DNA of 64,000 nt from Gammaproteobacteria bacterium (GTDB taxonomy: Bacteria; Pseudomonadota; Gammaproteobacteria; Eutrophobiales; Eutrophobiaceae): positions 84,282 to 148,281 of the forward strand of contig JBDNFW010000026.1 in the NCBI GenBank assembly GCA_041689615.1. Direction: 5' to 3'. The position numbers and the translations under genes were made by a program. The notes beneath the pieces were generated by a model. It saw nothing but the letters and a program-made list of their open reading frames with translations, ran no database searches and was not told where the DNA came from. Numbering within the stretch: the stretch's first letter is position 1; each line of letters begins with the position of its first letter. This document shows, in pieces, positions 8,396-30,139 of the stretch.

Positions 8396-9787
8396 TCATT
8401 CGTTCATTCGTTTTTTAAGTCGCGCAATGGCTAACTTAACCTGTTCGGGTGCTGTTCCACCTATATGATTCCTCGCTGCAACAGAACCTTCCAGTTCCAA
8501 TACTGAAAATACATCTTCTTTGATGACATCGCTGAATTGTTGAAGTTCAGGCAACGTTAACTCTGATAAAGTCTTACTATGCTGAATCGCAAATTGAACG
8601 GTCTTACCCACCACTTCATGTGCATCTCTAAAGGCGAGCCCGTTCACGACTAAATAGTCAGCAAGATCAGTTGCAGTAGCAAAACCTGCTGCTGCTGCTT
8701 GATACATTGCTTCTCTATTAACTGTAATAGTAGGTATCAAACCAGTATAGGCAATCAGACACATCTTTACCGTATCAATTGCATCAAACAGGCTTTCCTT
8801 ATCTTCCTGATTATCACGGTTATAGGCTAACGGTTGTCCTTTCATTAATGTCAATAACGCCATCAGATCGCCATAAACACGACCTGTTTTACCTCTGACT
8901 AACTCAGGAATATCGGGGTTTTTCTTTTGCGGCATAATGGACGAACCGGTACACCAGGCATCACCCATATCAATAAAACCATTCGACTGAGATATCCAGA
9001 GAATTAACTCTTCAGAAAATCGGGATAAATGCATCATGATCAAACTTGCCGCCGCAGAAAACTCAATGGCAAAATCTCTGTCACTAACAGAATCCAGTGA
9101 ATTTTGCGTCACACCATCAAAACCAAGCTGTTCAGCAACATATTCTCTGTCTATGGGATAGCTCGTACCAGCGAGCGCAGCAGCCCCTAAGGGCAATACA
9201 TTTAACCTTTTTCTACAATCCTTAAGACGTGATCGATCTCGCAACAACATTTCAGCCCAGGCCAATATATGATGGCCAAAGGTGACCGGCTGCGCGGATT
9301 GCATATGCGTAAAACCCGGCATAATGGTGTCATATTGCTCTGAAGCAAGCTTTACTAAAGCATTAAGTGTTTCATTAAGCTTTTCGCAAACCAGATCAAT
9401 TTCATCACGCAAATACAGTCGCATATCGGTTGCGACCTGATCATTTCTCGACCTGCCGGTATGTAATTTTTTACCCACATCACCAATGCCCTGTACTAAA
9501 GCCGTCTCAATGTTCATATGTACATCTTCAAGCTTGGTAGACCATTGGAACTGCTTAGAATTGATATCGTGCTCAATCTTCTCTAAACCACCAATAATCA
9601 GCTCGCTTTCTTTTTTAGTGATAACTCTCACCTTTGCTAACATGCGGACGTGAGCTATTGAGCCCATGATGTCATAATGAGCCAAGCGTTGATCATAGGA
9701 GACCGACTCTGTGAATATCTCAACAAATTCATCGGTAGGAGCTGTGAATCTCCCGCCCCAGGGTTTTTTTGTATTATTTGATGTCAT
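8396..9787 (-). CDS. argH: Argininosuccinate lyase
   Basis: 463 aa with fumarate-lyase family signatures ([12 protein letters not shown]). It is full length versus ArgH. Confidence 0.9.
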
Positions 9788-9841
9788 AACTTAATGATTA
9801 TATTTTAATTTTCTACAGCTGACAGTATAAGCGATTTTCAG

Positions 9842-10912
9842 ATGCCAAAGTTAAACAACAAGCAAGATAAAAGCAGTTTCCTGCCAAATTTTTGTAGTGT
9901 AGACGTCCTGTTTGTTGTCGTTTTAAGTGCCGAATTACTCGCCATCATCTTATCACTGGCACTCCCCATCTATTCACGAGACATCCTGTTTGATCTGGCA
10001 ATGAATTCTCTGTTTGTGCAATGGATTTCTCTAAGTTGTGTTGGCTTGCTCTGTATACTCAGGAACTATTTTGCCACTCTCTCGGAAAAACGCGCTGCAA
10101 CGCTTAGTTACTTAATCATTCTTTTAGTTGCATTTATTATTTCGGAACTGGCCTGGTGGTCATTGTATGTTTATCCGAACACCATGATACCAACACGAGA
10201 CTTACATGTTTTGTTCCTATTACGTTCAATGGGCATTTCAGCCATAGTTGGTGCGATTGTCTTACGCTATCTCTATGTACAACATCAGTGGCGAAAAAAT
10301 ATTGAAGCTACGGCAACGTCACGCTATCAAGCCTTGCAATCCAGAATACGACCTCACTTTCTGTTTAATTGCATGAATACCATTGCCAGCCTGACACGTA
10401 AAGCGCCCGAATTAGCGGAACAATCGGTTGAAGATTTAGCTGACTTATTTCGCGCGAGTTTACTGGAACCAACCGAGCTTTATAAAATTTCTGAAGAATG
10501 GAAATTATGCCAACACTATCTTCGTATAGAAGGACATCGTTTGGGTGATCGATTACATATTGAGTGGGATATTGATACTTTGCCTGAAGATGCACTAGTT
10601 CCGCCGTTAAGCCTTCAACCTTTGATTGAAAATGCAATTTACCATGGAATAGAACGCTTGCCTGAAGGCGGCACTATTCTAATAAAAGGTGAATTTAGCA
10701 ATGCCATACTTCATTTAAACTTCACTAATCCAGTACCCCCCGCTAACATTGAAGATACTCATAAGGGTAATAAACATGCTCAGGAAAATATCCGCCAACG
10801 GTTGAACACCATCTTTGGACAGGAGAGTAATTTAATATTTAAAAGTACCGATAGACATTACATTGTTGAACTAACTTTACCTTACAAACGTTATGAAAAT
10901 ACTGATCGTTGA
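9842..10912 (+). CDS. algZ: LytS-type sensor histidine kinase (AlgZ/FimS-like)
   Basis: 356 aa with N-terminal TM helices and an His_kinase LytS-type H-box (RPHFLFNCMNTIASL). The argH-algZ-algR synteny is as in Pseudomonas. Confidence 0.75.
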   Translation: MPKLNNKQDKSSFLPNFCSVDVLFVVVLSAELLAIILSLALPIYSRDILFDLAMNSLFVQWISLSCVGLLCILRNYFATLSEKRAATLSYLIILLVAFIISELAWWSLYVYPNTMIPTRDLHVLFLLRSMGISAIVGAIVLRYLYVQHQWRKNIEATATSRYQALQSRIRPHFLFNCMNTIASLTRKAPELAEQSVEDLADLFRASLLEPTELYKISEEWKLCQHYLRIEGHRLGDRLHIEWDIDTLPEDALVPPLSLQPLIENAIYHGIERLPEGGTILIKGEFSNAILHLNFTNPVPPANIEDTHKGNKHAQENIRQRLNTIFGQESNLIFKSTDRHYIVELTLPYKRYENTDR

Positions 10913-11627
10913 TGACGAAGCGTTAGCACGAGAAAGACTGCACGATCTTGTTGTTGAACTCTATCCAGACGCCATCACTGTTGAAGCGGCTAATGGAATG
11001 GAAGCATTGGATAAGATCACTGAGCATTCACCAGAAATTGTTTTACTGGATATTCGTATGCCGGGCATGGACGGACTCGAAGTCGCAAATCACTTGTTGC
11101 ACATGGAAACCCCACCGGCTATTGTTTTTACAACGGCCTATCAGGATCATGCCTTAAGTGCTTTTGATGCAAACGCAGTAGATTACTTACTAAAACCTAT
11201 ACGAAAAGAACGTCTTAAAACGGCAATCGAACGTGCTGCGGTCGTTAGTCAGTCTACATTATCATCACTTAAGGAAACAGAAGGCGTTTCTTCTTCACGC
11301 TCACATCTTAGCGCCATGGTTCAGGGGAAAATGCAATTAATTGCTATTGAAAATATATATTGCCTTAAAGCAGATCAAAAATATGTCACAGCAGCCTGGC
11401 CGGGAGGAGAAATATTACTCGATGAATCACTAGTATCCCTGGAAACTGAATTTTCAAATTATTTTATTCGAGTTCATCGAAACGCTTTAGTTGCTATCAA
11501 TCATATTGATAGTCTAAGAAAAACAACTGAAGGACAGCAAGTGATTAAATTATCCGACATGCCAATTGAATTATCTATCAGTCGTCGGCACCTTCAAGAC
11601 ATAAAAAAGATTTTCAAGTCACACTAG
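10893..11627 (+). CDS. algR: LytTR-family response regulator (AlgR-like)
   Basis: 244 aa with a REC domain (ILIVDDE...LLDIRMPGMDG) and a C-terminal LytTR DNA-binding domain. It overlaps the kinase gene by 20 nt. Confidence 0.8.
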   Translation: MKILIVDDEALARERLHDLVVELYPDAITVEAANGMEALDKITEHSPEIVLLDIRMPGMDGLEVANHLLHMETPPAIVFTTAYQDHALSAFDANAVDYLLKPIRKERLKTAIERAAVVSQSTLSSLKETEGVSSSRSHLSAMVQGKMQLIAIENIYCLKADQKYVTAAWPGGEILLDESLVSLETEFSNYFIRVHRNALVAINHIDSLRKTTEGQQVIKLSDMPIELSISRRHLQDIKKIFKSH

Positions 11628-17127: not shown

Positions 17128-17853
17128 CTAAGTATCAACGCCGATGCATTTTAAATAAGCGTCTTCAAGGCCTTTCGTTTGAAACTGATCACAGCATTCA
17201 GACGGTGAACCGTTAAAACATATACTTCCGTTATGCAGTACGATAATACGATCACATATACTTTCTACATCTGCCAACAAGTGCGTACTAAAAAAAAGCG
17301 TTTTGCCTGTTTCCTTTAAGCTAATTAAGTAACGTTTTAAATAAGCGCGTGCTTTTGGATCGAGGCCACTCATCGGTTCATCAAATAACAACATCGGTCT
17401 TTGGCTTAAAAAACACGATGCTAAACCCAGTTTTTGTGCCATGCCTTTTGAATATTGTCGTACCGATTTTTTTAATGCCGATGTGTCTAGATCCAGAACC
17501 ATAAGTACTTCTTCTATATCTGTTTCTTGTAACTGGACTTGATTCAACTCAGCCATATAAGAAAGAAAATCTTTCCCTGTTAAATAATAAGGCGCTAAGA
17601 ACTTTTCCGGAAGAAATGATAATGACTGACGCGACGATGTTTCTCTATGCGACTGGCCAAAGATTTCAATCTTGCCTGTTTTTATTGAGATAAAATCAAG
17701 AATCGATTTTATTAAGGTTGTTTTACCTGCTCCGTTAACACCAACCAGTCCAATATACTCACCTTGAATAACCGACAAATTAATATCTGTCAGCACGGAA
17801 TGTTTTCCATAATCCTGATTTAATTGTTCAATATTAAGCGCTATTGTAGTCAT
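17128..17853 (-). CDS. ABC transporter ATP-binding protein (ABC-2 subfamily); no adjacent permease
   Basis: 241 aa with Walker A (GVNGAGKTT), the signature motif (YSKGMAQKL) and Walker B (LLFDEP). Confidence 0.85.
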   Translation of the reverse strand: MTTIALNIEQLNQDYGKHSVLTDINLSVIQGEYIGLVGVNGAGKTTLIKSILDFISIKTGKIEIFGQSHRETSSRQSLSFLPEKFLAPYYLTGKDFLSYMAELNQVQLQETDIEEVLMVLDLDTSALKKSVRQYSKGMAQKLGLASCFLSQRPMLLFDEPMSGLDPKARAYLKRYLISLKETGKTLFFSTHLLADVESICDRIIVLHNGSICFNGSPSECCDQFQTKGLEDAYLKCIGVDT

Positions 17854-18002
17854 ATATTATTTACACTATCGTTTGTGCGTCCTCTCGGCCTAGACTCCTG
17901 TGTCGCTCTCGGTCTCTGTTCCAGACTCGACTCTACCGATTACGTCCTGTAATCGTATCTCCTGCATCCAAGTCGTATACAAATAACATTACGTTCCTAT
18001 AA

Positions 18003-18034
18003 ATAAAAAATGCCCGCAATTCGCGGGCATATTT
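18003..18034 (-). terminator. Rho-independent terminator (bidirectional hairpin) downstream of the orphan pilin gene
   Basis: ATGCCCGC-aattc-GCGGGCAT forms an 8-bp GC-rich stem. It is flanked by an A-run and a T-run. Confidence 0.75.
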
Positions 18035-18055
18035 TAAATCAAGTTTGATAATTTC

Positions 18056-18820
18056 TTAGTATAAAAATACCTGACTACAATCCTGAGCATCATCAAAAAT
18101 ATCATAAATATCTGTTACTGTTGTACCATCACCTGCAGGAGCCGCACCGGGCGCACCAGCTGCAGTAGTAGTGCAAGTTGCAAATTGCGGTGCAAAATTT
18201 GTCGTATCAAACTCCGTAGCAGTTCCATCAGCTGTGGTTAATCGTAATACGCCAGTATTTGGTAAACCGTCATCTACCTTAAGATCCAGTTCACGTGCAA
18301 TATTAACTGGGACATTTCGACCTACATGCAGATTCAAACGTTGTGATGCAATACCTGTATAGCCATCATTTCGACTTAAGATTAGAGGGCCATTAAAAGC
18401 ATTCACAGGTGCAACGGCTGCATAAAGTGCTTCACTTGCCGGAATTGCAGCTGCAGGTGTAAAACCACCACCCAGAAAATTAGACTTGGCCAGTTGTTCC
18501 CACGCTGCGGACGCTTCTTCACGTGTATTATCAATACGACCATTACCTTCCGTAGCAGCTCCCGCAGATGGTAAAGCAATTGCGACACCGATGGCTTGCT
18601 GTGCAGCTAATCGCGGCCAATCACCCGGAACCTGTCGATAGCGATCTATAAAACCGTAGTATGCCGCTTGTATACCTGAATTTTGATCAGCCAGATTACG
18701 TACTCGTGCACTGTTAATTAATTCCTGGCCTTTAAGTATGCCGCCCAGTAACAAGCCGATGATTACCAGAACAATGGCTATTTCTACTAATGTAAAACCT
18801 TTTTGTTTATTAATTTTCAT
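18056..18820 (-). CDS. Type IV pilin (prepilin N-terminal cleavage/methylation domain), orphan candidate major pilin
   Basis: MKINKQKG|FTLVEIAIVLVIIGLL is a type IVa prepilin leader with Glu5. A C-terminal Cys pair (C...C in the last 40 aa) forms a D-region. A sigma54-like promoter lies upstream. Confidence 0.8.
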   Translation of the reverse strand: MKINKQKGFTLVEIAIVLVIIGLLLGGILKGQELINSARVRNLADQNSGIQAAYYGFIDRYRQVPGDWPRLAAQQAIGVAIALPSAGAATEGNGRIDNTREEASAAWEQLAKSNFLGGGFTPAAAIPASEALYAAVAPVNAFNGPLILSRNDGYTGIASQRLNLHVGRNVPVNIARELDLKVDDGLPNTGVLRLTTADGTATEFDTTNFAPQFATCTTTAAGAPGAAPAGDGTTVTDIYDIFDDAQDCSQVFLY

Positions 18821-18867
18821 TTTCTTTTATTCTCCATATATAAACTTTTACTGCATTTGCTTAAGAC

Positions 18868-18887
18868 TACAGCAGAGATCATGCCAA
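18868..18887 (-). promoter_or_regulatory. Candidate sigma54 (-24/-12) promoter, TGGCAT-N5-CTGCT, for the orphan pilin gene
   Basis: The minus strand reads TGGCATGATCTCTGCTG with GG-N10-GC spacing exact. It lies about 50-65 nt upstream of the pilin ATG. A sigma54 activator is encoded at 36837-38279. Confidence 0.45.
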
Positions 18888-19094
18888 AACATTAAGCGCT
18901 TGATTTTATTATAAATATTGCTCATTTGCTCAAGTTGTTTATCAGCAATATGATGACATATCAACAATACTGTCGATATATCATCAATTCATATTTAGGC
19001 ACTTCTATAATAGTCATTCGCAATATGTTAGCTTGGCAAAAAAATTGCGGTATATATTAAAAAATCAAATCACAACAATTTATAAGACATTAAA

Positions 19095-20351
19095 TTGATG
19101 CCTGTAATATCAAAAAATAACTTAATAAAGATATCGATTATCTTTATTGTATTCATCATTTTTCTATCCGGTGCAACTGGCCTGATTGAAATTACTATCA
19201 GTCAGAATCCTATCTTCAGTATTAACAGTAAGCTTTTTAATTCTTCAGGTAACTATAATCTGGCACTTGGTAACATACTGCTAAGCAAAGAATTTAGCTT
19301 ATTATTGATATCTGGTTTACTGTTAACAGTTGCCTTGCCCCTATTAGCGCCATTAAAAGCATTCATACTGACCTTTGTATTATTGCTGTTTACCTTTTTT
19401 CTAGCTTCTTACAGCGCAAATGTTGGATTAATACCATTAGAATATTGCTTCTTGACCATACTGGTTATTTATATCGTTAATGTATTAATCAGTTATGTTT
19501 TTGAAATACATTCAAAACAAAAATTAATGGAAACATTTGGACAGTACATCCCGCCTCATCTCGTTAATGAATTAAGTCGGTTGCCAAAAGAACTTTCTCT
19601 GGAAGGCGAATCGAAAACACTCACCGTTTTCTTTTGCGATTTACAAAGTTTCACCAGTATTTCAGAAGAACTAAATCCAAAACAGTTGAATAGGCTACTC
19701 AATGAGTACTTTACTGTGATGACGGAGATATTGTTTAAACATGAAGGAACTATTGATAAATATATTGGTGATGCAATCATGGCTTTCTGGAATGCGCCAA
19801 CAAAACAAGATGCGCATGCCCAGCGCTCTGTTGAAGCTGCACTGGAAATGGATCTCGCTATAAAAGAACTTGCAAAAACCTTTATTACACGCGGTTGGCC
19901 TGGACTAAAGATGGGAATTGGTATTAATACAGGTCGAGCGAACGTGGGTAATATGGGTTCCAAGTATCGCATGACATATACCGCCATAGGTGATGCGGTT
20001 AATCTGGCTTCGCGCATTGAATCGCTCACCCGAACCTATCAAGTTCCGATCATTATCAGTGAACATACGCATAAACAATTAGATGGAATCTGTTGCAGAG
20101 AACTAGATCGGGTACAAGTTCGTGGAAAAAAACAATTAACCAGACTATTTCAACCCTTAGGTTATGAGCATGAAGTCGACAATCGATTAAAGGAAAAATT
20201 AATACTACATACAGAAGCGATTGAACTCTATTATGACAAAAAATATAAGAATGCCAGTCGCTTATTTAAGGAAATTTATGAATTAGATAGGGAGGATAAA
20301 TACTACAAAGCAATGCTAAAGAAAATAATGGAACAACAAGATATCGTTTAA
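19095..20351 (+). CDS. Membrane-anchored class III adenylate/guanylate cyclase
   Basis: 418 aa with about 5 N-terminal TM helices and a cyclase homology domain (FCDLQSFTS, GDAIMAFWNAP, GINTGRANVGNMGS). Confidence 0.8.
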   Translation: MMPVISKNNLIKISIIFIVFIIFLSGATGLIEITISQNPIFSINSKLFNSSGNYNLALGNILLSKEFSLLLISGLLLTVALPLLAPLKAFILTFVLLLFTFFLASYSANVGLIPLEYCFLTILVIYIVNVLISYVFEIHSKQKLMETFGQYIPPHLVNELSRLPKELSLEGESKTLTVFFCDLQSFTSISEELNPKQLNRLLNEYFTVMTEILFKHEGTIDKYIGDAIMAFWNAPTKQDAHAQRSVEAALEMDLAIKELAKTFITRGWPGLKMGIGINTGRANVGNMGSKYRMTYTAIGDAVNLASRIESLTRTYQVPIIISEHTHKQLDGICCRELDRVQVRGKKQLTRLFQPLGYEHEVDNRLKEKLILHTEAIELYYDKKYKNASRLFKEIYELDREDKYYKAMLKKIMEQQDIV

Positions 20352-20356
20352 CTTAA

Positions 20357-21082
20357 CTATTCCTGATTTTGCCGTTGTTTAATTTCTTCTAATCGTTGGC
20401 CAAGAAATTCTCTCTGATGTGGGTCTTTTAGTTCACCGCTTTCAAGTAAACCGCCAATAAGTACCATTGCACTTTCCAGTTCACCCATATCTTCCAGTAC
20501 AAAAATTTCCATTTGTTTTGCCCAATAAGGGACATTGTCACCTTTAGCATATTGTCGAATTAGCCGCGCATTTTCGAGCGCCAATTGCTTATCTTTAATT
20601 TGATGTTTAGCGACATATACTGCATGAGCCATAAATGGCCAGCGTTCATTTGGTTTTTCAATAAATCTTTCACCTGTGTAACGGATCATTTTTCTTTGCT
20701 TACCTTCATCCGATACCAGAGAATAAAATCGAATTGCTGCTAATAACGGATATTGGGTTTTATTATCAAGTTCTAATATTAGATCTAACCATTCAATCAC
20801 TCTATCGTAATTTAAATCTTTCAAAGGAATACTGATGCCAGGTTGATTATCAAACGACTGTAACCAGAGCATGCTGATTTTTGCTGCTGTAATAGGATCA
20901 TCAAGGCTAACAAGTTTTACATAAGAAGCCTGAGGGGGTTTTGGCAACTCATTACGCGTAACTTCTAACTTGCTAAACGATAAATGCCAAAGACATTGCA
21001 AAAATAGACTTAATAATAAAACAAACCAGATACTTTTAGGGACATAAGAAACATCTTTGGTTTGAGCGACATAAAGCTTCAT
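20357..21082 (-). CDS. Hypothetical signal-anchored protein, co-transcribed downstream of the ABC-2 permease
   Basis: The ORF is 20357-21127. The start was trimmed to the internal Met (MKLYVAQ...) to avoid overlapping the upstream permease. It has one TM and no recognisable domain. Confidence 0.4.
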   Translation of the reverse strand: MKLYVAQTKDVSYVPKSIWFVLLLSLFLQCLWHLSFSKLEVTRNELPKPPQASYVKLVSLDDPITAAKISMLWLQSFDNQPGISIPLKDLNYDRVIEWLDLILELDNKTQYPLLAAIRFYSLVSDEGKQRKMIRYTGERFIEKPNERWPFMAHAVYVAKHQIKDKQLALENARLIRQYAKGDNVPYWAKQMEIFVLEDMGELESAMVLIGGLLESGELKDPHQREFLGQRLEEIKQRQNQE

Positions 21083-21092
21083 ATCTTTATTT

Positions 21093-21866
21093 TTATAATT
21101 CTTTTCTATATAAATCAAACAAGGCAATACTTGATAAAAGAATAACGTAAATTAAAGTCTGGCCGGCAACTATAAGCATGTCTGCTTTTACATCAGATAA
21201 ATATATCAGCCAGCCAGTTTGTGTAAATTTATAAAGATCAGGAATGATATAAGCAATAATGTCCAGTAAGCTATTTATAAATTGATGACTGAACGTACTC
21301 GATGCAATAATTGGAGAATCACTTATTAATTGAATTGCCTCTATCGATCTGGACAGAATATAGAATGCAATCACAACACTGAATGAAATCGTAATGCTGT
21401 TAAACGAAAACAGACATAACAAACTTAATGAAATAATAATTAATAACTCACAAAATAGTGACAATGACCATAATATTACTAAATCAGCTTGAGCATAGAA
21501 ACATAAACAGCCGGCACTCATTAGTGCAATAAGAAATGCAACAACTGAAAATCCGGCAAATTTGCCAAAATAATAGGATGATCGTGGAACAGGATGTGAA
21601 AGAATCAACTCGAAGCCTTTATCATTAAATTCCCGAACCATGCTTGTAATAACAAATAAACCCATTGTAAATACAGAAAATAGTCGCAAAGCTGAAGCGA
21701 GGAGTGCTGACTGCATCTGGGCACCTTCCGTAATAGCAAGTTCACCGATAAACATTGATACTAAAAAAAGAGCAATGACACCCATAAAAATAAAGATAAG
21801 AAATTTATCCCGTATGGCTTCCCAAATTGAATATTTGGCTATTGTCAGTAATAGATTATGATTCAT
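21093..21866 (-). CDS. ABC-2-type transporter permease (about 6 TM)
   Basis: 257 aa. The N-terminus (KYSIWEAIRDKF) matches the ABC-2/NosY/GldF-type start. It is multi-pass hydrophobic. Confidence 0.55.
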   Translation of the reverse strand: MNHNLLLTIAKYSIWEAIRDKFLIFIFMGVIALFLVSMFIGELAITEGAQMQSALLASALRLFSVFTMGLFVITSMVREFNDKGFELILSHPVPRSSYYFGKFAGFSVVAFLIALMSAGCLCFYAQADLVILWSLSLFCELLIIISLSLLCLFSFNSITISFSVVIAFYILSRSIEAIQLISDSPIIASSTFSHQFINSLLDIIAYIIPDLYKFTQTGWLIYLSDVKADMLIVAGQTLIYVILLSSIALFDLYRKEL

Positions 21867-21939: not shown

Positions 21940-23631
21940 ATGACCACTTTTATACATAAATTAATTAAAAAAAGAGAACTTATTGTTCTCGTAATGATGT
22001 TAGAAATGCTGCACCTGTCAATCTGGATTGATTTTGGCAGCATCGTTTCGCGTTTATTTATGCTGAGTCATCTTGGTCTTTTTTTACTATGGCAGCCTGT
22101 GTGGCGTGGCGATGAAAAACTTAGTACTGAAAACACCATCCTTTTTATTGTTTTTACTCTTGCTCTAACTATTTGGTTAAATCTTTGGTTACTCTTTGCC
22201 TGGTTAATTCTATTAATTGGCTTTATCAGCGGTCGCGTTACTTTAGACAATAATGAAAGAACCATTTATGTCTTTGCTTTGGGATTTCTTGTAATAGAAT
22301 TGCTCTTCGCCTGTGTGCCCGAATTGGCAAATGTTAATATTGAAAACAAGCGATTCTTTTATCTTTTACTTCCTGTTCTTCCACTATTAATGCTTGTTTT
22401 TCCAAGCACAAAATCAGAACACCAAGTTCGTATGGTAGATTTCATCCACACGATAACAGCGTCCATGCTTACAAGTTTGGTTGCTCTGGGAAGTTTGTTA
22501 ATCATGTTTATCAATGAAACATCCTATTTTACTGCATTGACTCAAACTTCGGTTGCTATTGGTGGATTTATCATATGCATAAGCTGGTTAATAACATCGC
22601 AGTCTCGTTTCAGTGGTGTTACTCAATTATGGTCTAGCTACATGCTGAACATAGGAACGCCTCTTGAACAATGGTTAACTGAATTATCACGCTTTTCTCA
22701 ACAACAAAATAAACCAGAAGAATTTTTAAAAATTGCTATTAATGAATTACTAACATTAACATGGATCAATGGAATCAGGTGGGCAAGCATTGACTCAAAA
22801 GGAGAAATCGGAAAAATTACCAAACATAGTACACAGTTTAATACTAATAACCTTACCATAGATATTTATACTAATAACTTAATGGGGGGTACGTTATATG
22901 CACATTGCAACTTACTCGTACAGTTAGTTGAAAATTTTTATATCGCCAAGCTTAGAGAGAAAACACTAACACAGCAAACCCATCTAAAAGCAATTTATGA
23001 AACTGGGGCGCGAATAACACACGACATTAAGAACCTACTACAGTCGCTGCAAGCCATTACCAGTATTATTACGCATGACTCCAGTGGTTCCAGTCTTGAA
23101 GTATCACAACAAGTCTTAAAAAGACAATTACCAAATTTAACTCAACGATTGCAACTGGCATTAGATAAATTACAAACGCCTGAAGATTATGATATAGAAG
23201 AAATTTATCTTAAAGACTGGTGGGCTGATATTAAGAAAAGAAATTCACATAATAAAAAAATAGTACTCCAACAAGAAATTCACACTGACCCAACTATCCC
23301 TGTCGATTTATTTGATAGCGTCGTTGATAATTTACTTGAGAACATTCAGGCCAAGCAAATGAACGAACCAGAAATTGATATCACAATCACCCTTGTTTGT
23401 AATGAAAATATGATCAGTGTCACTGTTTGTGACTCAGGCAACATGATTCCAGAAAATATTTCCAGAGAGTTATTATCAAGTGTTATTAGATCCGATAATG
23501 GATTAGGTATCGGTTTATATCAGGCAAGTAAGCATGCTGGAAAATTTGGTTACGATTTAAAATTGGTTAATAACCAACACGGGAGAGTTTGTTTCGAATT
23601 AACTTCACAACAATATAATGAGAATGACTAA
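21940..23631 (+). CDS. Polytopic sensor histidine kinase (PilS-like; about 6-7 TM N-terminal domain)
   Basis: 563 aa with an H-box (ITHDIKNLLQSLQAI) and an HATPase_c G-box (DNGLGIGLY). No cognate response regulator is adjacent. It is convergent with the pilus operon. Confidence 0.75.
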   Translation: MTTFIHKLIKKRELIVLVMMLEMLHLSIWIDFGSIVSRLFMLSHLGLFLLWQPVWRGDEKLSTENTILFIVFTLALTIWLNLWLLFAWLILLIGFISGRVTLDNNERTIYVFALGFLVIELLFACVPELANVNIENKRFFYLLLPVLPLLMLVFPSTKSEHQVRMVDFIHTITASMLTSLVALGSLLIMFINETSYFTALTQTSVAIGGFIICISWLITSQSRFSGVTQLWSSYMLNIGTPLEQWLTELSRFSQQQNKPEEFLKIAINELLTLTWINGIRWASIDSKGEIGKITKHSTQFNTNNLTIDIYTNNLMGGTLYAHCNLLVQLVENFYIAKLREKTLTQQTHLKAIYETGARITHDIKNLLQSLQAITSIITHDSSGSSLEVSQQVLKRQLPNLTQRLQLALDKLQTPEDYDIEEIYLKDWWADIKKRNSHNKKIVLQQEIHTDPTIPVDLFDSVVDNLLENIQAKQMNEPEIDITITLVCNENMISVTVCDSGNMIPENISRELLSSVIRSDNGLGIGLYQASKHAGKFGYDLKLVNNQHGRVCFELTSQQYNEND

Positions 23632-24419
23632 GGTAATACTTCTGCCTTAACCATTCTATTCATCAATATATTCGGTGAAATCCACATTACAATATCATCA
23701 AACTCACAAAGCACATTAGACTCATCAGCATCATCCGTACAACCTGCCGCACCTTCAGAAAAGCTGCGCGAATAAAAATTATTATTTGTATTCGCATCAT
23801 CATTTTCAGCTTCATCAGTAAGCGGCGTAGTTGCTGTCAATACCGTATTATTAATCGTTGTCGCACCTAAACTATTTCTTCCGTGTGAAACAATAACTGC
23901 GGGAACTAAAGTTGCGGCTGTGAATGGTGTCTTAGACTCAATAGCACCACCATTATTAGCATCTCCCCGGCTTAATATAGTTATACCCCCCAATGTCTGA
24001 CATAAATCAAAGTCTCCAGCAGCCCCAGCATCATTAGAGCAAATACCATTATCAAAGGTCGTAAATGCAGGAGTATTTACATGATATTTAAATCGATTTC
24101 CCCAAACATCGCCTTGAATGCTTAATCCCAAGGTCTGCCACGGCAACCAACCATCTCCTGTTGCTGCCGTACATGTTCCCGATGTTGTTGGATCAGAAAC
24201 ACCATCACCATTGGTATCTGGACATGGTAAATATCTATTAATAACAGCGAACCCATATAAGGATTCCATAATGTCATTCATCGTATCTATAGTTTGTTGT
24301 CGTTCCTGTGACTCTATCTGCGTACCAACCGGTCCTAATAATCCGACCATAAGTAAACTAATAATGAATAGAACGACAGAAAGTTCTATTAAGGTAAAAC
24401 CATGTATTTTTTTATTCAT
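23628..24419 (-). CDS. Type IV pilin / pseudopilin-like protein (prepilin N-terminal motif), last gene of the pilus operon
   Basis: MNKKIHG|FTLIELSVVLFIISLL. 263 aa, Cys-rich and Thr/Gly/Asn-rich at the C-terminus. Confidence 0.75.
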   Translation of the reverse strand: MNKKIHGFTLIELSVVLFIISLLMVGLLGPVGTQIESQERQQTIDTMNDIMESLYGFAVINRYLPCPDTNGDGVSDPTTSGTCTAATGDGWLPWQTLGLSIQGDVWGNRFKYHVNTPAFTTFDNGICSNDAGAAGDFDLCQTLGGITILSRGDANNGGAIESKTPFTAATLVPAVIVSHGRNSLGATTINNTVLTATTPLTDEAENDDANTNNNFYSRSFSEGAAGCTDDADESNVLCEFDDIVMWISPNILMNRMVKAEVLP

Positions 24420-26231
24420 TTATGGTCCCGTTGAAATTACACGTGTTTGGTCATTATATATATTCGTAGGGGTATTTTTTAAAAAAGTATCATCAAGATT
24501 AGTATTCTCAATATTATCAAAATAATCCGTTAATAAACCGCTAGGTCTTGCTGCATTAAGATCACCACCAGCAGATAATACGTTAGCGCGGACATTATTT
24601 ATTAACGTACCATTTCTATTCACTGTAAGACATGCTGTGACAAGAGACAGACAATCTTGTCCTGCCGCAGTATCTCCTGGCAAGGGCTCACCTGATGCAT
24701 AAGCGACATAAATCAAATTCTGCCAATCATTAGCAACAAACCATTCAGGTAATTCACTATCATCAATATCCAAGTCATATTGAATTCCTGTAGCTCTGAA
24801 ACTACCTGTAGTACCCGCTACGAAGTTTATAGAGCCTCCACCTATCGTGCTTATTATTGGAGTTAAACAATCTCCAGGAGTACCTCCTGTATAAACGTCT
24901 CGAACCTCGACTGCATTATTCTGGACAGGAAGATCATTTAAACTGACATCGCGTGTTCTTGTAACGAGGTTTGTTGGATTATTGACGCTTGCAGTTCCTA
25001 AGTATTCTGGAATGTTAACATTGTAATTTCTGGTACAAGTAGCGTTTCCACATCCTTGATCACAAACTACAGTTGACATCAATACCCAACCAGCGGTGGC
25101 ACAATCGACTGTATCTTTATTTGTCCAAGTGCAATCAACTGGTGGCGTTGTTACCTGTGTTATTTGAGGATATAAAGGATCAATACAATCGACATTTCTT
25201 AGACAATCTGCCGGTAATGTACCCCATGGAAAATTGCTAGTCGTCGCTGTGCCAGGGTCGGTATGCCATATCCATCCAACCGCTGATTGAAAAGGGTTTC
25301 TTCCAACAATATTCGAACCTGCACCCACTTCGACAGAATCTGGATCATTCGACCAATGGTAGGGTAAATGTCCCTGCACTGTATTTAATGTGCCTCTGAA
25401 TGTTGACACAGATGGATCTGCAAAAGGACTTAACCACGGATAAGCTGCATATGTAGCTTGATAATCATTTATAGTATTTTGTACGTCAGTGAGTACTCTT
25501 TTCTCAACCAAAGTCATTAATTCCAGGCGAGTAATAGTTACAAGTTTGTCATTAAAAATATTTGAATCCCCAGTTGCATCTCTGGTGACAAAGTTTGCAT
25601 CAAGATCATTATTGTCGGCTTCAAGATAATTACTTATTTCAACAGTTATATCTGTTATGGAAGGATCTCTATTTTGACCGATGACTGGTTCGCCAGGTGC
25701 AAGAATAATCGCGACGATATCATCAATATCACCATCCGCCACAACATCAATAACACCATTAATATTTACATCTATATTAAGTTGACCAGGTGTATCACTA
25801 TTTAATGGTTGTAATCCAGCAAAATTTCGAAAATTATCTGAAAGTACATACCATAATTTTTGTCCGCTAGCGTCCTTTAGTTCACTTACATTTAATGTTT
25901 CATTTGGAAACCTTCCGATTGTTCGATTGGTAGGACCAGCCAATGCACATCCACCTTCTGCATCACCATCATTATCAAGATCCGGGCAAGGCAAATATCC
26001 AGGACTTGCATTAGCATTGATTTTATCTGGATAGGTTATCGCATACCCCATTAGTACTTGCTTTGCTTCTGCTAAAACTCTACTTGTTACTAAATCTCTT
26101 GTGTATGGTTTTCTTGCATTGTTTAATTTACTTACCAAAGCATAAGATACAGCAGAAACAAGAAGCAACATAAAAATCAACATCGCGGCACCATGCTGTG
26201 ATTTATATTTGACTGTAAAACTTAAGGTCAT
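24420..26231 (-). CDS. PilX-N-terminal-domain protein (minor pilin-like / putative tip adhesin-like)
   Basis: 603 aa. It has an N-terminal hydrophobic segment (HGAAMLIFMLLLVSAVSYAL) without Glu5, as in PilX/MshP-like proteins. The rest is a large Asn/Thr/Gly-rich domain. Confidence 0.45.
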   Translation of the reverse strand: MTLSFTVKYKSQHGAAMLIFMLLLVSAVSYALVSKLNNARKPYTRDLVTSRVLAEAKQVLMGYAITYPDKINANASPGYLPCPDLDNDGDAEGGCALAGPTNRTIGRFPNETLNVSELKDASGQKLWYVLSDNFRNFAGLQPLNSDTPGQLNIDVNINGVIDVVADGDIDDIVAIILAPGEPVIGQNRDPSITDITVEISNYLEADNNDLDANFVTRDATGDSNIFNDKLVTITRLELMTLVEKRVLTDVQNTINDYQATYAAYPWLSPFADPSVSTFRGTLNTVQGHLPYHWSNDPDSVEVGAGSNIVGRNPFQSAVGWIWHTDPGTATTSNFPWGTLPADCLRNVDCIDPLYPQITQVTTPPVDCTWTNKDTVDCATAGWVLMSTVVCDQGCGNATCTRNYNVNIPEYLGTASVNNPTNLVTRTRDVSLNDLPVQNNAVEVRDVYTGGTPGDCLTPIISTIGGGSINFVAGTTGSFRATGIQYDLDIDDSELPEWFVANDWQNLIYVAYASGEPLPGDTAAGQDCLSLVTACLTVNRNGTLINNVRANVLSAGGDLNAARPSGLLTDYFDNIENTNLDDTFLKNTPTNIYNDQTRVISTGP

Positions 26232-26243
26232 GACCTTTTAAAT

Positions 26244-26753
26244 TTACAGGCTACCTTTGAGGTCTACTGTATCAACGATATCCGTTTCTATAGGTGCAGG
26301 ATTAACGATATCCCTTTCTATTGGTTCAGGAGTAAAGGCTTCTCCAACTCTTAGTTCAACTTTGGTGCTATCATCAGGCATAATAATAGTAACTTGATCA
26401 GATTTAATTTTGTTATCCGGCACTTGAATAAACTGTGAATCCAAATCTCCTTCAAAAGTATTACTATCATTAACCCATGCCGTATTTTTTCCATCACTAC
26501 GGTGAACAAGTCCTCTTAAAGTGATTGAATCACGAATCACTGTCTCTTTTTTAATGAGTTCAGGTTCTTCCACATTTTTGACTTCTTCTATTACAACTTT
26601 TTTGGGTTCTTTCTTTATCAACCTTATTTTTTCCAGCTTTAGTCTTTCTTCAGCTGAAGTAAATAGCCTACCCAAGTTATCTGCATAAACTGGCTGTATA
26701 AAAATATAACTACAGATAACCAAGAATAATTGGCGCTGACAATAAATTTTCAT
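26244..26753 (-). CDS. MshK/PilP-like pilus biogenesis protein
   Basis: 169 aa, signal peptide. Assignment rests on position after the MshJ-like gene. Confidence 0.4.
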   Translation of the reverse strand: MKIYCQRQLFLVICSYIFIQPVYADNLGRLFTSAEERLKLEKIRLIKKEPKKVVIEEVKNVEEPELIKKETVIRDSITLRGLVHRSDGKNTAWVNDSNTFEGDLDSQFIQVPDNKIKSDQVTIIMPDDSTKVELRVGEAFTPEPIERDIVNPAPIETDIVDTVDLKGSL

Positions 26754-27379
26754 CCTATCTTAATCTCCTGACCGCCAACTAGATTTATAGTTATCCAATG
26801 CAATAAACAGGATGCAGAAATATTCGCATGATCTTTTTCAAATTGAATTTTATTGCCATTCATTCTGAAAGTGCATTCGGACAATGTATAGATTCCTTCT
26901 GCAGACTGATTTAGATAATCGAGCAATTTAAATAAATCTCCTTCATGCAACAAGCCTAAATTAAGCTCCATACTGCTACGATAAAGCGTATAACCGCTAT
27001 AGTTGATGCTGTACTCGGGGATATGTTCTTCTTGAGAATTTATCGAATATGTTAATAAAGGCAGTTTGACATTTTCTCCCGCTTGTCTTAACGCTTCTAT
27101 CCAATTCAATCTTTTTTCATGACCTATAATGCCTTGATTATATAACTTAACAAATTGTGGATAGTAATTATGCAGCAATTTTTCTTCCTGATCTACGTCC
27201 AGGTATCGTCGACTGATAGACTGAAAAATACTCTTATTATTAATATATTCTTTATTTAAGTTGCTATTAAAATAATAACTTGAACCTATTAGGGTACTCG
27301 CAATAACAAGACAGACACAAAATATAATGAGTGGGCCTTTCAAGATACTCCAGTCTATTTCATTTTTCTTTTCCATCAA
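26750..27379 (-). CDS. MshJ/PilO-like inner-membrane pilus assembly protein
   Basis: 209 aa with a single N-terminal TM then a periplasmic domain. Its position and size fit MshJ. Confidence 0.45.
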   Translation of the reverse strand: MMEKKNEIDWSILKGPLIIFCVCLVIASTLIGSSYYFNSNLNKEYINNKSIFQSISRRYLDVDQEEKLLHNYYPQFVKLYNQGIIGHEKRLNWIEALRQAGENVKLPLLTYSINSQEEHIPEYSINYSGYTLYRSSMELNLGLLHEGDLFKLLDYLNQSAEGIYTLSECTFRMNGNKIQFEKDHANISASCLLHWITINLVGGQEIKIG

Positions 27380-28962
27380 TTCACTCCGACCACGGCTCTT
27401 AACGAAAACAAAGCTGTTTTGCCTTTAGACCGGGTATTTCCTTGTAAAGTAGCCTTTGAACTTATATCAAGAGGAAATGATTCAATACTAACTGAGTATG
27501 CTGAATCAAAACCGCTAAGTGTCTCAGCAAACTCATTCACCATGGCTATTGCTTCACGATAATTGCCATCAAATGGTTCGATGTGTGCGCTTAGATTAGA
27601 TATCTGATAATACTTCACTTGATTAATATCATTCACTATATCTACCGGCAAATTATCGCTATTGTCTTCTACTGCAGTGCCTTTATTCGGATCAAGACTA
27701 AAAATCCAATCTATATCATCCAATTTTATTTTCGGATATTGTTCCAAGCCCTTACCCAAAAAACTCAACATCTCATGGGGAGTCGATTTATATTCTTCCA
27801 ATGTTGCTACAGCATCAACTGCCACTTTAATCTGTGCTGGCTCGACCGGAGTTTTTGGCAAGCGTTCTCTGGCAAGATCGTATCGAACCTGGTAGAAGTC
27901 AGCCTTATTTTTCGATGACTCACTCTCCTGCTTATATGTCAGTCCACCCATAAAATTCAAACCGCTATATATAACACTAACAAATAATAATGTGGCACTG
28001 GCAACATTCATAGCATGCCGCATATTACGCATTTTTAAGTAACGCATCTCACTAGAAGAAGCGTAGCAATTTTTAACCTGATCTTTCAATAGGTGGCAAA
28101 GCAGTAATTGATCGCTGAATGGAACCGTTTGCACAGCACTTTTTTGAATAGACTCTAGTAATTTATTTACATCGTAATAATGCCGCTTTAGCATTCGTGC
28201 TGAAACTTTTCTTTTTTCTAATTCATCCAAAGTTGTTTTATCAGCTATCACGTATACATCTAAAGAAGTGTCATTCGGTATTAAGCGCAGACTGTTAAGA
28301 TAACGCTGAATTTTTTCAACCTCGGATTCGATTCTTGGTGCGTACGACTCGGTTCCGAAACGCGGTAATTTTGAAAGACGACTGATCTTTAATTCTTTCT
28401 TATGAAAAAAAGTCTGCCTCAACCCACTGATACTCTGCATCGTTACAATCAATGCGTGATCCGAAATATCCGGTAAGGTTTTAATATAGGATTGGAGTAA
28501 CAAAGGAACAGAAAGCATGCCCTTTAATGGCACTTTATATTTATCGAGTAACTCTATCCAGGGTTCTACTATGTCCTGTTTAGTTAACGCAACGAACAAT
28601 AAACGATCATCGCGACGCCCTTCTACTTCACGACCTTGACTTTGCACATAGACATAATCAGCATCTCGGAACAAGCGAGATTGTTTACGCTCAATCAATG
28701 CTGTTCTATCTGAACCAAAAACATGAGGGATAGTATCTTGCCGAAACTCTTCTTCAATGACGTCAACTAAAATAGTCATTGGTGTATTTTCAGTCTCTTT
28801 CAAGTACCGTTCAAAATTGTTACGCCCAGCATCATCGATATCAAACATGTATGAACTACCAAGCTCGCCTTTATCCCAGTGGTACACGGATACCTTATCA
28901 GCACTAATAAAGAGTGCGCGTCTGTTAAAAAAATCAGATTTTGACTTTTGTAATGAGATCAT
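27376..28962 (-). CDS. MshI-like pilus assembly protein (PilM-like N-terminus fused to a TM + PilN-like C-terminus)
   Basis: 528 aa. It has a cytoplasmic N-terminal domain, a TM at about aa 330-350, then a periplasmic domain. This architecture is typical of MshI. Confidence 0.45.
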   Translation of the reverse strand: MISLQKSKSDFFNRRALFISADKVSVYHWDKGELGSSYMFDIDDAGRNNFERYLKETENTPMTILVDVIEEEFRQDTIPHVFGSDRTALIERKQSRLFRDADYVYVQSQGREVEGRRDDRLLFVALTKQDIVEPWIELLDKYKVPLKGMLSVPLLLQSYIKTLPDISDHALIVTMQSISGLRQTFFHKKELKISRLSKLPRFGTESYAPRIESEVEKIQRYLNSLRLIPNDTSLDVYVIADKTTLDELEKRKVSARMLKRHYYDVNKLLESIQKSAVQTVPFSDQLLLCHLLKDQVKNCYASSSEMRYLKMRNMRHAMNVASATLLFVSVIYSGLNFMGGLTYKQESESSKNKADFYQVRYDLARERLPKTPVEPAQIKVAVDAVATLEEYKSTPHEMLSFLGKGLEQYPKIKLDDIDWIFSLDPNKGTAVEDNSDNLPVDIVNDINQVKYYQISNLSAHIEPFDGNYREAIAMVNEFAETLSGFDSAYSVSIESFPLDISSKATLQGNTRSKGKTALFSLRAVVGVN

Positions 28963-30139
28963 AAATAGGTCCTAAAACTGAAAACATAACCCAGGCAATA
29001 ATACTACCCAGAACAATAGTCATCGCCGGCTCAATCATCGACTGAAGTCTTTCAATAGATTCTTTAACATCACGTGTATAAAAATAACTAATATTCGATA
29101 AGGCATTCTCCAATGCACCTGTACTTTCGCCAACACGAATCATACGTAGTACAAGTGGAGGGAATATGCCTACTTGAGAAAAACTATCACTTAATGTCGT
29201 GCCATCAGAAATTTTCTGTCCAACCTGATGCATAGCAAGTGCAATTGATTTATTACCAGCAATCTCTTCCCCTGTTCTTATGCAATCGATAATGGTAATT
29301 CCAGATGAATACATAATGGCAAAGAAACTACAAAGCCGCGTTAATATAATTTTTTTAAGTATTGGACCAATTACCGGAATTTTTAACTTCAGTTCATCAT
29401 ATTTTAAATGGAATGCTGGACTTGTTTTAATACCAATATAAATACCCAAAATAATAACGATGGGTATCAACAGTAAAATATACCAATAATTAACGAAGAT
29501 ATTTGATACGACAATAAGTACTTTGGTATGAACAGGTAATTCTTGTCCCATTGTTTTAATAAAACGTAATAATTCAGGTACTAGATAAGTCATTAAAAAG
29601 AAGACCACTCCACCAACAACTGTTCCGACAAACGCTGGATAAGTCAGTAATTTTTTTGTAAGCGCCGCTTGTTCATCTTGCCATTTAAGACTGATGCCAA
29701 GTTCTTCAAACACCTTACTAATCTGACCGGATTGTTCGCCTGCGCTAACCAGGTTAGTAAATATTTTTCCAAACACGTTTTCAAATTCTGCCATGGCCTG
29801 AGCTAAAGTTTTACCACCTTCAATAGCTTCGATCATTGCATTTGTCACTTCTGCCATTCTTGGATTATCGCTACTGTCTCTTAAATCCTGCAAACTCTCC
29901 AATACAGGCACGCCGGCACGAGATGTTTGTTCAAAATGAAAACAGAACGTAATTAAATCGCGTCGCTTAATGCCTGAAGCTGAAAAACTTTTAACTCTCG
30001 ATTTAACTTCTTTACAATTAACTAAATCAAGTTTTAGCTTATTAAGACGCATTTCCAGATCAGCAATATTAGCTGCATCAACCTGGCCATTATGGATACG
30101 ACCACGTTTATCTATCGCCTTGTATTGATAAGCTTCCAT
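28934..30139 (-). CDS. mshG: Type II secretion / type IV pilus platform protein (GspF/PilC/MshG family)
   Basis: 401 aa. It has two T2SSF repeats with 3 TM regions. Confidence 0.85.
   Translation of the reverse strand: MEAYQYKAIDKRGRIHNGQVDAANIADLEMRLNKLKLDLVNCKEVKSRVKSFSASGIKRRDLITFCFHFEQTSRAGVPVLESLQDLRDSSDNPRMAEVTNAMIEAIEGGKTLAQAMAEFENVFGKIFTNLVSAGEQSGQISKVFEELGISLKWQDEQAALTKKLLTYPAFVGTVVGGVVFFLMTYLVPELLRFIKTMGQELPVHTKVLIVVSNIFVNYWYILLLIPIVIILGIYIGIKTSPAFHLKYDELKLKIPVIGPILKKIILTRLCSFFAIMYSSGITIIDCIRTGEEIAGNKSIALAMHQVGQKISDGTTLSDSFSQVGIFPPLVLRMIRVGESTGALENALSNISYFYTRDVKESIERLQSMIEPAMTIVLGSIIAWVMFSVLGPIYDLITKVKI

Follow-up and report, generated by a model that had tools for sequence, protein, structure and literature searches.

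The window considered here, meaning the whole stretch of 64,000 nucleotides that was analyzed (contig JBDNFW010000026.1 of a gammaproteobacterium of the family Eutrophobiaceae, assembly GCA_041689615.1), carries on its minus strand a prepilin gene, and the region upstream of this gene holds a candidate sigma-54 promoter, two palindromes and a core resembling a site for the integration host factor (IHF), while an enhancer-binding regulator and a sensor kinase are encoded in the same gene cluster (Table 1). The protein begins with MKINKQKG, followed by the cleavage mark and then by FTLVEIAIVLVIIGLLLGG, that is, it has a short and basic leader of seven residues, Gly at -1, Phe at +1 and Glu at +5, and the mature chain starts with FTLVEIAIV. 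It scored 32.7 bits against Pfam N_methyl (cut-off 21.2) and 25 bits, likewise above the cut-off, against TIGR02532, and beyond this prepilin methylation motif it matched no family in the family-model scan. Its only two cysteines, Cys216 and Cys248, do not vary among 22 close homologues, and Cys248 does not vary among 113 homologues either; the pair has the C-terminal placement of a pilin disulfide loop, the bond itself being predicted. An earlier reading made from the letters alone (hereafter, the sequence-only reading) had described a 254-residue pilin with such a leader, Glu5 and cysteine pair, and in these respects it was borne out.

The same reading had pointed to a GG-N10-GC element before the pilin ATG. 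This element, TGGCATGATCTCTGCTG (18886-18870, minus strand), stands in the exact register of the sigma-54 consensus TGGCACG-N4-TTGCW, with the GG and GC ten bases apart and 10 of the 12 specified positions in agreement; its 3' end is located 50 nt upstream of the ATG, and transcription would start near 18860. Obviously, the motif in the window taken alone is weak evidence, because the bare pattern (TGGYAY-N5-YTGCW) is expected 0.66 times by chance in a window of the same composition, or about 5e-4 times in a 100-nt zone in the right orientation. The promoter survey was based on a one-genome-per-species scan for the pilin, which recovered at least 538 loci, 80 of which were kept; nearly all of these belong to uncultured Gammaproteobacteria, with Methylohalomonas lacus HMT 1 (L026) as the sole cultured representative. 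Relatives of the pilin number in the thousands, and the best 120 are 65-80% identical over the full length. Among the upstream zones of 78 orthologous pilin loci, the strict motif was found in 46 and the loose motif in 65, in the latter case 45-110 nt before the ATG and at pilin identities of 41-80%. When the best -24/-12 match was taken from each of 79 upstream regions, it was in most cases placed 36-67 nt ahead of the ATG. As a control, 1,995 other open reading frames (ORFs) yielded 24 matches, ten of which precede the same pilin with an alternative start codon, and true matches before other genes are practically lacking. Furthermore, the sigma-54 consensus is also followed where the search had set no constraint: of 69 sites, 60 have A at +4, 43 have G at +6 and 59 have A or T at +15, whereas the columns flanking the motif are near background and drift from one locus to another.

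A matrix built on 68 orthologous sites, the window's own site being excluded, gave this site 20.6 bits out of a possible 24.4, as compared with 13.6 bits for the runner-up of 128,000 positions, which falls inside a coding region; no other site in the window exceeds 14 bits. Within the pilin-anchored loci (1.23 Mb in total, reaching 10 kb from the pilin), matches of at least 15 bits occur 58 times before pilins and 8 times elsewhere, and the activator-anchored loci (399 kb in total) contain a single one. No other sigma-54 site or palindrome was found above background in the window or in the activator-anchored loci. On the strength of its conservation across orthologues, we regard the promoter before the pilin as real and as more than a chance match, and no second conserved sigma-54 site appears to exist within the cluster or around it. 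A second sigma-54-like motif, TGGCACGAATCTAGCA (14768-14753, minus strand, 22 nt before the Rsd/AlgQ gene), was used as a negative control; it is kept in the closest relative only (L001) and in 0 of 11 other Rsd loci, and is probably due to chance.

It can hardly be maintained that the -24/-12 match is fortuitous and that the pilin is transcribed from a sigma-70 promoter. To this idea one may credit the chance rate of the bare pattern given above, a weak sigma-70-like element at 18976-18947 (TCGACA-18-CATATT, 9 of 12 positions), and the sigma-70-like hexamers carried by some relatives that lack the sigma-54 motif. However, the -35 hexamer of that weak element is a half-site of a palindrome described below, the sigma-70 scan returned 26 matches versus 31.3 in shuffles, i.e., fewer than by chance, and the sigma-54 element keeps its distance in those 65 of the 78 loci while the bases around it drift. 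Over the 260 nt before the pilin ATG, at least two loci (L008 and L075) show no sigma-54 motif and carry the sigma-70-like pairs TTTACT...TATAAT and TTGCAA-N17-TATCCT; in both, the slot usually taken by the kinase gene could not be assessed. Because such sigma-54-less loci carry sigma-70-like hexamers, the comparison suggests a turnover of promoter class inside the pilin family. In the three loci that have the kinase and lack the motif, the -12 element is one base off the consensus.

A search upstream of the promoter for activator sites found two 16-bp palindromes, which surfaced when the closest upstream regions were aligned and which both fit TGWYGA-N4-TCRWCA. In the window they lie 20 bp apart from center to center, start at -100 and -80 from TGGCA, and would be centered about -118 and -98 from the predicted transcription start. 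Counted from TGGCA in 69 anchored loci, palindrome starts cluster at -100 +/- 2 and -80 +/- 2, except that one clade places them at -120 and -90 instead. At least one palindrome falls between -130 and -60 in 51 of the 69 loci; a site at the distal position (-103 to -97, at most two mismatches) is present in 42 and one at the proximal position (-83 to -77) in 33, and the two occur together in 29 loci, or in 32 when three that also carry a -120 site are included. The distal consensus across loci is itself a perfect palindrome, TGTCGAAATTTCGACA, and about 82 of the 111 palindromes found in 1.23 Mb fall in the pilin upstream zone. In the four loci that have neither kinase nor promoter, the palindromes are absent or reduced to a weak partial match (L070). 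Their form, TGT-N10-ACA, is of the NifA-like type, and sites of this general kind are noted as a hallmark of PilR (PMC6058289). With their conserved and fixed spacing, the palindromes behave like activator sites, to which binding is predicted.

The palindromes lie in a region of 277 bp that the pilin shares with a divergent cyclase gene. We consider it distinctly improbable that they are operators of a regulator other than an enhancer-binding protein, for instance one of the CRP/FNR type sensing the nucleotide made by this cyclase, with the enhancer-binding protein bound elsewhere or acting from solution. The shared region and the TGT-N10-ACA form, which resembles that of CRP sites, would suit such a regulator, but the inner bases and the spacing of the half-sites are unlike those of CRP sites (TGTGA-N6-TCACA) and FNR sites (TTGAT-N4-ATCAA), and the palindromes are kept at the same offset in loci without the cyclase (L018, L049 and L051). 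Fixed phasing to the -24 element and tandem arrangement are, in addition, typical of enhancer sites, and where the sigma-54 promoter is lost the palindromes go with it.

Between the palindromes and the -24 element lies the IHF-like core, with an A+T-rich tract ahead of it in the window. A strict core (WATCAR-N4-TTR) occurs at a fixed -19/-20 from TGGCA in 18 of the 69 anchored loci and a relaxed core in 33, against a background of 0.006 per 70 nt, and the 60 nt ahead of the promoter are 59% A+T as compared with 45% for the loci overall; the pattern is consistent with IHF binding upstream of the -24 element. At the other end of the unit, the GGAG/GAGA block of the ribosome-binding site is retained in close relatives, and the pilin gene is followed by a strong, G+C-rich terminator that consists of a 9-bp stem, of which 6 pairs are G-C, and a T-run. 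Past the pilin stop, 54 of 78 loci have a comparable hairpin with T-run versus 21 of 300 random windows (7%), usually at a distance of 22-34 nt and with the stem GCCCGC, in keeping with the separately transcribed, strongly terminated pilin of the sequence-only reading. When 17500-19300 was scanned against Rfam, the only matches were sub-threshold ones to the terminator hairpin. Judging from these elements, the pilin unit would show the full classical layout of enhancer, bend, -24/-12 promoter, gene and terminator. The 202-nt stretch from the pilin stop to the next gene, which encodes an ATP-binding cassette (ABC) ATPase (17854-18055), includes the terminator and folds better than shuffled sequences (z = -3.2); it matched no Rfam family, and the G+C-richer 150 nt that come after the hairpin (17854-18009) could serve as the leader of the ABC ATPase gene.

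The regulator encoded in the cluster is the sole enhancer-binding protein found in the window. It has the Sigma54_activat domain (220.7 bits) with GAFTGA at residue 232, its true start is likely the ATG at 38252, and in every metagenome locus of sufficient length its gene comes first in the assembly operon, down to 50% identity. The receiver (REC), sigma-54 AAA+ and Fis-type helix-turn-helix (HTH) domains that make up the architecture of PilR are all present, an arrangement common to all NtrC-family regulators. Among curated models it scores best to PrsR (353.5 bits) and NtrC (351.2 bits), in both cases below cut-off, and the solved structures nearest to it are those of generic NtrC proteins. 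PilS has six membrane helices and lacks a periplasmic domain; for the kinase in the window a hydropathy scan gave 7-8 hydrophobic segments in residues 13-218, and its best curated model is PrsK, at 39.9 bits against a cut-off of 300. Reference models for PilR and PilS were absent from the matches listed for the two proteins. We thus take the activator for a generic NtrC-family protein and the kinase for a multi-pass membrane kinase, neither of them a demonstrable PilR or PilS orthologue, and the labels "PilR-like" and "PilS-like" given by the sequence-only reading apply to the architecture only.

The activator gene lies 18-19.5 kb and the kinase gene 3.1-4.8 kb from the pilin start (the kinase had been placed 5 kb away), and this split arrangement is conserved across loci. 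Because the cluster has a single activator and a single conserved sigma-54 site, the activator and the pilin promoter appear, by elimination, to belong together; the activator would also bind the palindromes and be paired with the kinase. Among loci whose usual kinase slot is covered, kinase and promoter motif are both present in 44 and both missing in 4, with the kinase only in 3 and the motif only in 3 (Fisher p=0.003). One might instead suppose that the promoter is real and is activated by an enhancer-binding protein from outside the window, such as a true PilR or an NtrC, and that the in-cluster regulator has another target. The 18 kb between the regulator gene and the pilin promoter, the three loci with the motif and no adjacent kinase, and a locus (L079) in which the pilin still has a sigma-54 motif and one palindrome although the 15-kb assembly operon and the kinase are missing from that place would all agree with this. 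We nevertheless judge it unlikely, since it leaves a conserved in-cluster activator without a target, the pilin promoter being the sole conserved sigma-54 site, and since promoter and palindromes vanish together in the four kinase-less loci.

The best explanation overall, which we hold to be probable, is that the major pilin of an MSHA-like machine forms its own transcription unit, controlled by sigma-54, the in-cluster activator and kinase, and IHF. In this scenario, sigma-54 RNA polymerase would wait as a closed complex at TGGCAT-N5-CTGCT until the multi-pass membrane kinase phosphorylates the NtrC-family regulator; phosphorylated regulator dimers would then occupy both palindromes, and a bend at the IHF-like site would carry the bound regulator to the polymerase, resulting in promoter opening and in high transcription through the pilin gene, mostly ending at the terminator hairpin. 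Because the assembly genes have no such promoter, the module would adjust the supply of subunits only.

Several points weigh against this explanation. About 13 kb separate the activator gene from the kinase gene, which is on the opposite strand, and their pairing follows from elimination and co-occurrence only; the co-occurrence, at p=0.003, is uncorrected for phylogeny and leans on the four loci with neither element. About 13 of the 69 promoter-bearing loci have no palindrome at the usual positions (allowing two mismatches), and the IHF-like core is unusually near the -24 element, ending 6-7 nt before TGGCA. Additionally, rpoN was not found among the window genes, and the putative role of the pilin as major subunit is argued solely from its own promoter, ribosome-binding site and terminator.

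Table 1. Elements of the pilin unit and genes of the surrounding cluster, with positions in the window.
Feature	Position	Strand	Remarks
Distal upstream activator site (putative), 16-bp palindrome TGATGATATATCGACA	18971-18986	minus	family consensus TGTYGA-AATT-TCGACA
Proximal upstream activator site (putative), 16-bp palindrome TGTTGATATGTCATCA	18951-18966	minus	center about -98
IHF-like core AATCAAGCGCTTA	18893-18905	minus	pattern WATCAA-N4-TTR; between palindromes and -24 element
Sigma-54 promoter TGGCAT-GATCT-CTGCT, TGGCATGATCTCTGCT	18886-18871	minus	GG at 18885-18884, GC at 18873-18872
Ribosome-binding site GGAG	18832-18835	minus	11 nt before ATG; read from sequence
Prepilin gene, 254 aa	18056-18820	minus	stop codon included; putative major subunit of MSH-like filament
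Intrinsic terminator ATGCCCGCG-AAT-TGCGGGCAT then TTTTTATTT	18010-18030	minus	hairpin and T-run
ABC transporter ATP-binding protein	17128-17853	minus	directly downstream of pilin in 77/80 loci
Membrane-bound class III adenylate/guanylate cyclase	19098-20351	plus	divergent from pilin; present in 37/80 loci
orf256, conserved 256-aa protein, no known family	20357-21127	minus	one hydrophobic segment; downstream of permease
ABC-2 type permease	21093-21866	minus	
Sensor histidine kinase (H-box ITHDIKN, HATPase_c)	21940-23631	plus	putative activator partner
Second prepilin-like protein, 263 aa, putative minor pilin	23628-24419	minus	last gene of assembly operon
Four conserved genes (603, 169, 209 and 528 aa)	24420-28962	minus	no family match
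Platform protein, T2SSF, GspF/PilC/MshG-like	28934-30139	minus	T2SSF 155.5 bits
Extension ATPase	30144-31859	minus	MshEN domain and MshE-related c-di-GMP-binding motif
TPR protein, MshN-like by position	31856-33571	minus	between secretin and ATPase
Secretin	33568-35268	minus	best model MshL
AAA_22 ATPase, MshM/ExeA-like	35327-36820	minus	AAA_22 93.8 bits
Sigma-54 enhancer-binding response regulator (REC, AAA+, HTH_8)	36837-38279	minus	first gene of assembly operon

The assembly operon, whose end lies 4.8 kb from the pilin, runs on the minus strand from the activator through the AAA_22 ATPase, secretin, TPR protein, MshE-like ATPase, platform protein and four further genes to the second prepilin; then follow the kinase (opposite strand), the ABC-2 permease, orf256, the optional cyclase (opposite strand), the pilin and the ABC ATPase. 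The same order is seen in about 80 species of Gammaproteobacteria, with the kinase seen in 51 loci within the 10-kb flank. The secretin reaches 235.7 bits against TIGR02519 (MshL), which is below the cut-off of 250.2 and far above its scores for GspD or PilQ; the extension ATPase scores 49.6 bits for MshEN and 52.6 bits (cut-off 38) for NF053729, a cyclic di-GMP motif; and the MshM-, MshG- and MshN-like assignments are family-level matches. No Peptidase_A24 match, and hence no prepilin peptidase, was obtained among 60 scanned window ORFs. In the MSH class, mshA, E, G, L and M are mandatory, mshA is a loner, and a prepilin peptidase is lacking (PMC6668835). As its parts match this class, the machinery appears to be MSHA-like, and the type IVa label of the sequence-only reading gives way to that of a machine with MshL-, MshE-, MshM- and MshN-like components. 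Going by position and size, the four unmatched genes may encode alignment components of the MshI/J/K type and one large protein associated with the pilus, and the second prepilin resembles the pilin in its N-terminal 65 residues only.

Nor is the pilin an orphan, as had been thought: the ABC ATPase follows it in 77 and orf256 precedes it in 67 of the 80 loci, with the kinase and the assembly operon just beyond. The idea of a split PilSR-pilin regulon holds insofar as a sigma-54 promoter stands before the pilin and an activator and a kinase lie elsewhere in the cluster; it fails in that there is no pilSR operon and neither regulator is demonstrably PilR or PilS. Instead of "orphan", "type IVa" and "PilSR", one should speak of a detached subunit gene in an MSHA-like cluster that has a two-component system of the NtrC family of its own.

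In six high-G+C loci (L103, L107, L111-L113 and L116; e.g., L111, 9262-11386), a homologue of the ABC ATPase (41-43% identity) is encoded immediately upstream of the activator gene, and the ABC component thus seems to stay linked to the system even with the pilin elsewhere. In L079 (4040-10654), genes for S-adenosylhomocysteine hydrolase and methylenetetrahydrofolate reductase abut the block of permease, orf256, pilin and ABC ATPase. In L016 (2881-4457) and L017 (9127-10699), the pilin gene is present in two tandem copies, and the sigma-54 motif was scored before the first of them.

The pilin itself is strongly conserved. Residues 1-67 are nearly invariant across 22 homologues, 37 columns are invariant across 113, and over long distances its conservation is about that of the platform protein (in L010, pilin 67%, platform 60% and ATPase 72% identity). 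Conservation on a par with the core machinery is unusual for a major pilin, and a literature search on the invariant N-terminus found no paper. Searched with its head (residues 60-254), a collection of 1.84 billion proteins yielded 160 cluster representatives at E<=1e-3, nearly all of them of pilin size or smaller and many of them fragments. In a profile search of solved structures only the N-terminal helix was matched (geopilin, MshA and PilA), and the head found no relative there. An AlphaFold model from the 22 close homologues was unusable (pLDDT 44); with 113 more diverse homologues the mean pLDDT was 66.6, with a good helix (residues 11-62, 52 residues, pLDDT up to 96), a mediocre head, and residues 194-238 below 50. 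A fold search with this best model gave no match at E<1, the head being only moderately or poorly modeled.

The ABC transporter genes flanking the pilin, together with a pilin as conserved as the core of its machine, are two oddities worth following. More tentatively, and with considerable doubt, one may imagine an undescribed but coherent type IV filament system, mostly of uncultured sediment and groundwater Gammaproteobacteria, in which MSHA-like machinery is combined with a dedicated pilin-flanking ABC-2 transporter, an unusually invariant pilin of about 250 residues whose head has no known relative, and a pilin-sensing kinase. By analogy with PilS, the kinase in such a system would sense the membrane pilin pool and feed back on the sigma-54 promoter via the in-cluster activator.

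Three further groups of genes in the window deserve a brief mention. At 8396-11627, after argH (minus strand) come a histidine kinase of the LytS type (9842-10912) and a LytTR response regulator (10893-11627), a neighborhood like that of argH-fimS/algZ-algR in Pseudomonas, where the pair controls minor-pilin genes. At 261-2981 lie a fragment of an integrase core (261-707) and a HipA toxin kinase (1385-2659), the latter with a small overlapping upstream ORF (2646-2981); together they may represent a mobile-element remnant with a toxin-antitoxin pair. Outside the pilus cluster, at 59482-60756 (minus strand), a response regulator is fused to a SpoIIE/PP2C phosphatase domain.

The mechanism proposed here is already known, and sigma-54 control of pilin genes is textbook matter, so that the surprise is limited. 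What is new is, in the first place, the regulatory map, in which two activator sites, an IHF-like site, the -24/-12 promoter and a terminator are backed by about 70 species with the promoter and palindromes at fixed spacing and specific to the pilin, and, furthermore, a defined 16-bp operator, a highly conserved pilin flanked by ABC genes, and the breadth of an unstudied pilus family present in no fewer than 538 species of Gammaproteobacteria, most of which, with few exceptions, are known from metagenomes only. The logic of kinase, activator and sigma-54 would hereby be extended from type IVa pili to an MSHA-like machine. Additionally, the turnover of promoter class offers a natural experiment on why pilin supply is tied to sigma-54.

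Among known systems, the PrsK-PrsR pair of the PEP-CTERM/exosortase systems provides the best models for kinase and activator, and the AAA_22 protein scores best to the XrtA-associated ATPase. All of these scores are, however, below the cut-offs (353 vs 503 for PrsR, 40 vs 300 for PrsK and 217 vs 325 for the ATPase), and no exosortase or PEP-CTERM genes were found in the window. In Myxococcus xanthus, pilA is under the control of sigma-54 and PilR, and the gene order is pilS-pilR-pilA-pilGHI. PilGHI of this species has been assigned to ABC transport (PMC6060248), and there, as here, a sigma-54-controlled pilin adjoins ABC-transporter genes. Unlike in M. xanthus, the pilin of the window lies between the permease and ATPase genes; the likeness to pilGHI is one of position.

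Commensal Neisseria control pilE through Nps/Npa, RpoN and IHF, and the promoter class switches between sigma-70 and sigma-54 among related lineages (PMC6528607). The present locus resembles pilE in its sigma-54, activator and IHF-like elements upstream of the pilin and in the turnover of promoter class; it differs in belonging to another pilus class and to other bacteria, and a role of IHF is here predicted from sequence. With the MSHA locus of Vibrio cholerae it shares an MshL-like secretin, MshM-, MshN- and MshG-like proteins and an MshE-like ATPase of the cyclic di-GMP type, as well as a detached pilin gene and a locus without a prepilin peptidase (PMC6668835). In contrast to V. cholerae, the gene order is another one, an enhancer-binding regulator and a kinase are built in, ABC genes flank the pilin, and the pilin, of about 250 residues, has a head without a detectable relative among solved structures. 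No account of an MSH-class pilin (mshA) under sigma-54 control turned up in our literature search.

Control of pilin genes by sigma-54 together with a regulator of the NtrC type and a multi-pass kinase has precedent (PMC6058289), and the PilS-PilR-pilA system of Pseudomonas aeruginosa is such a case. Unlike in P. aeruginosa, the regulators here are not demonstrable PilR and PilS proteins, their genes stand about 13 kb apart with no pilSR operon beside the pilin gene, the machine is MSHA-like and not type IVa, and two perfect 16-bp palindromes lie 20 bp apart. Nevertheless, the two systems have in common a -24/-12 pilin promoter, an activator of the REC-AAA+-HTH architecture, a kinase whose sensor part is, here by prediction, a bundle of membrane helices, and NifA-like TGT...ACA sites (PMC6058289).

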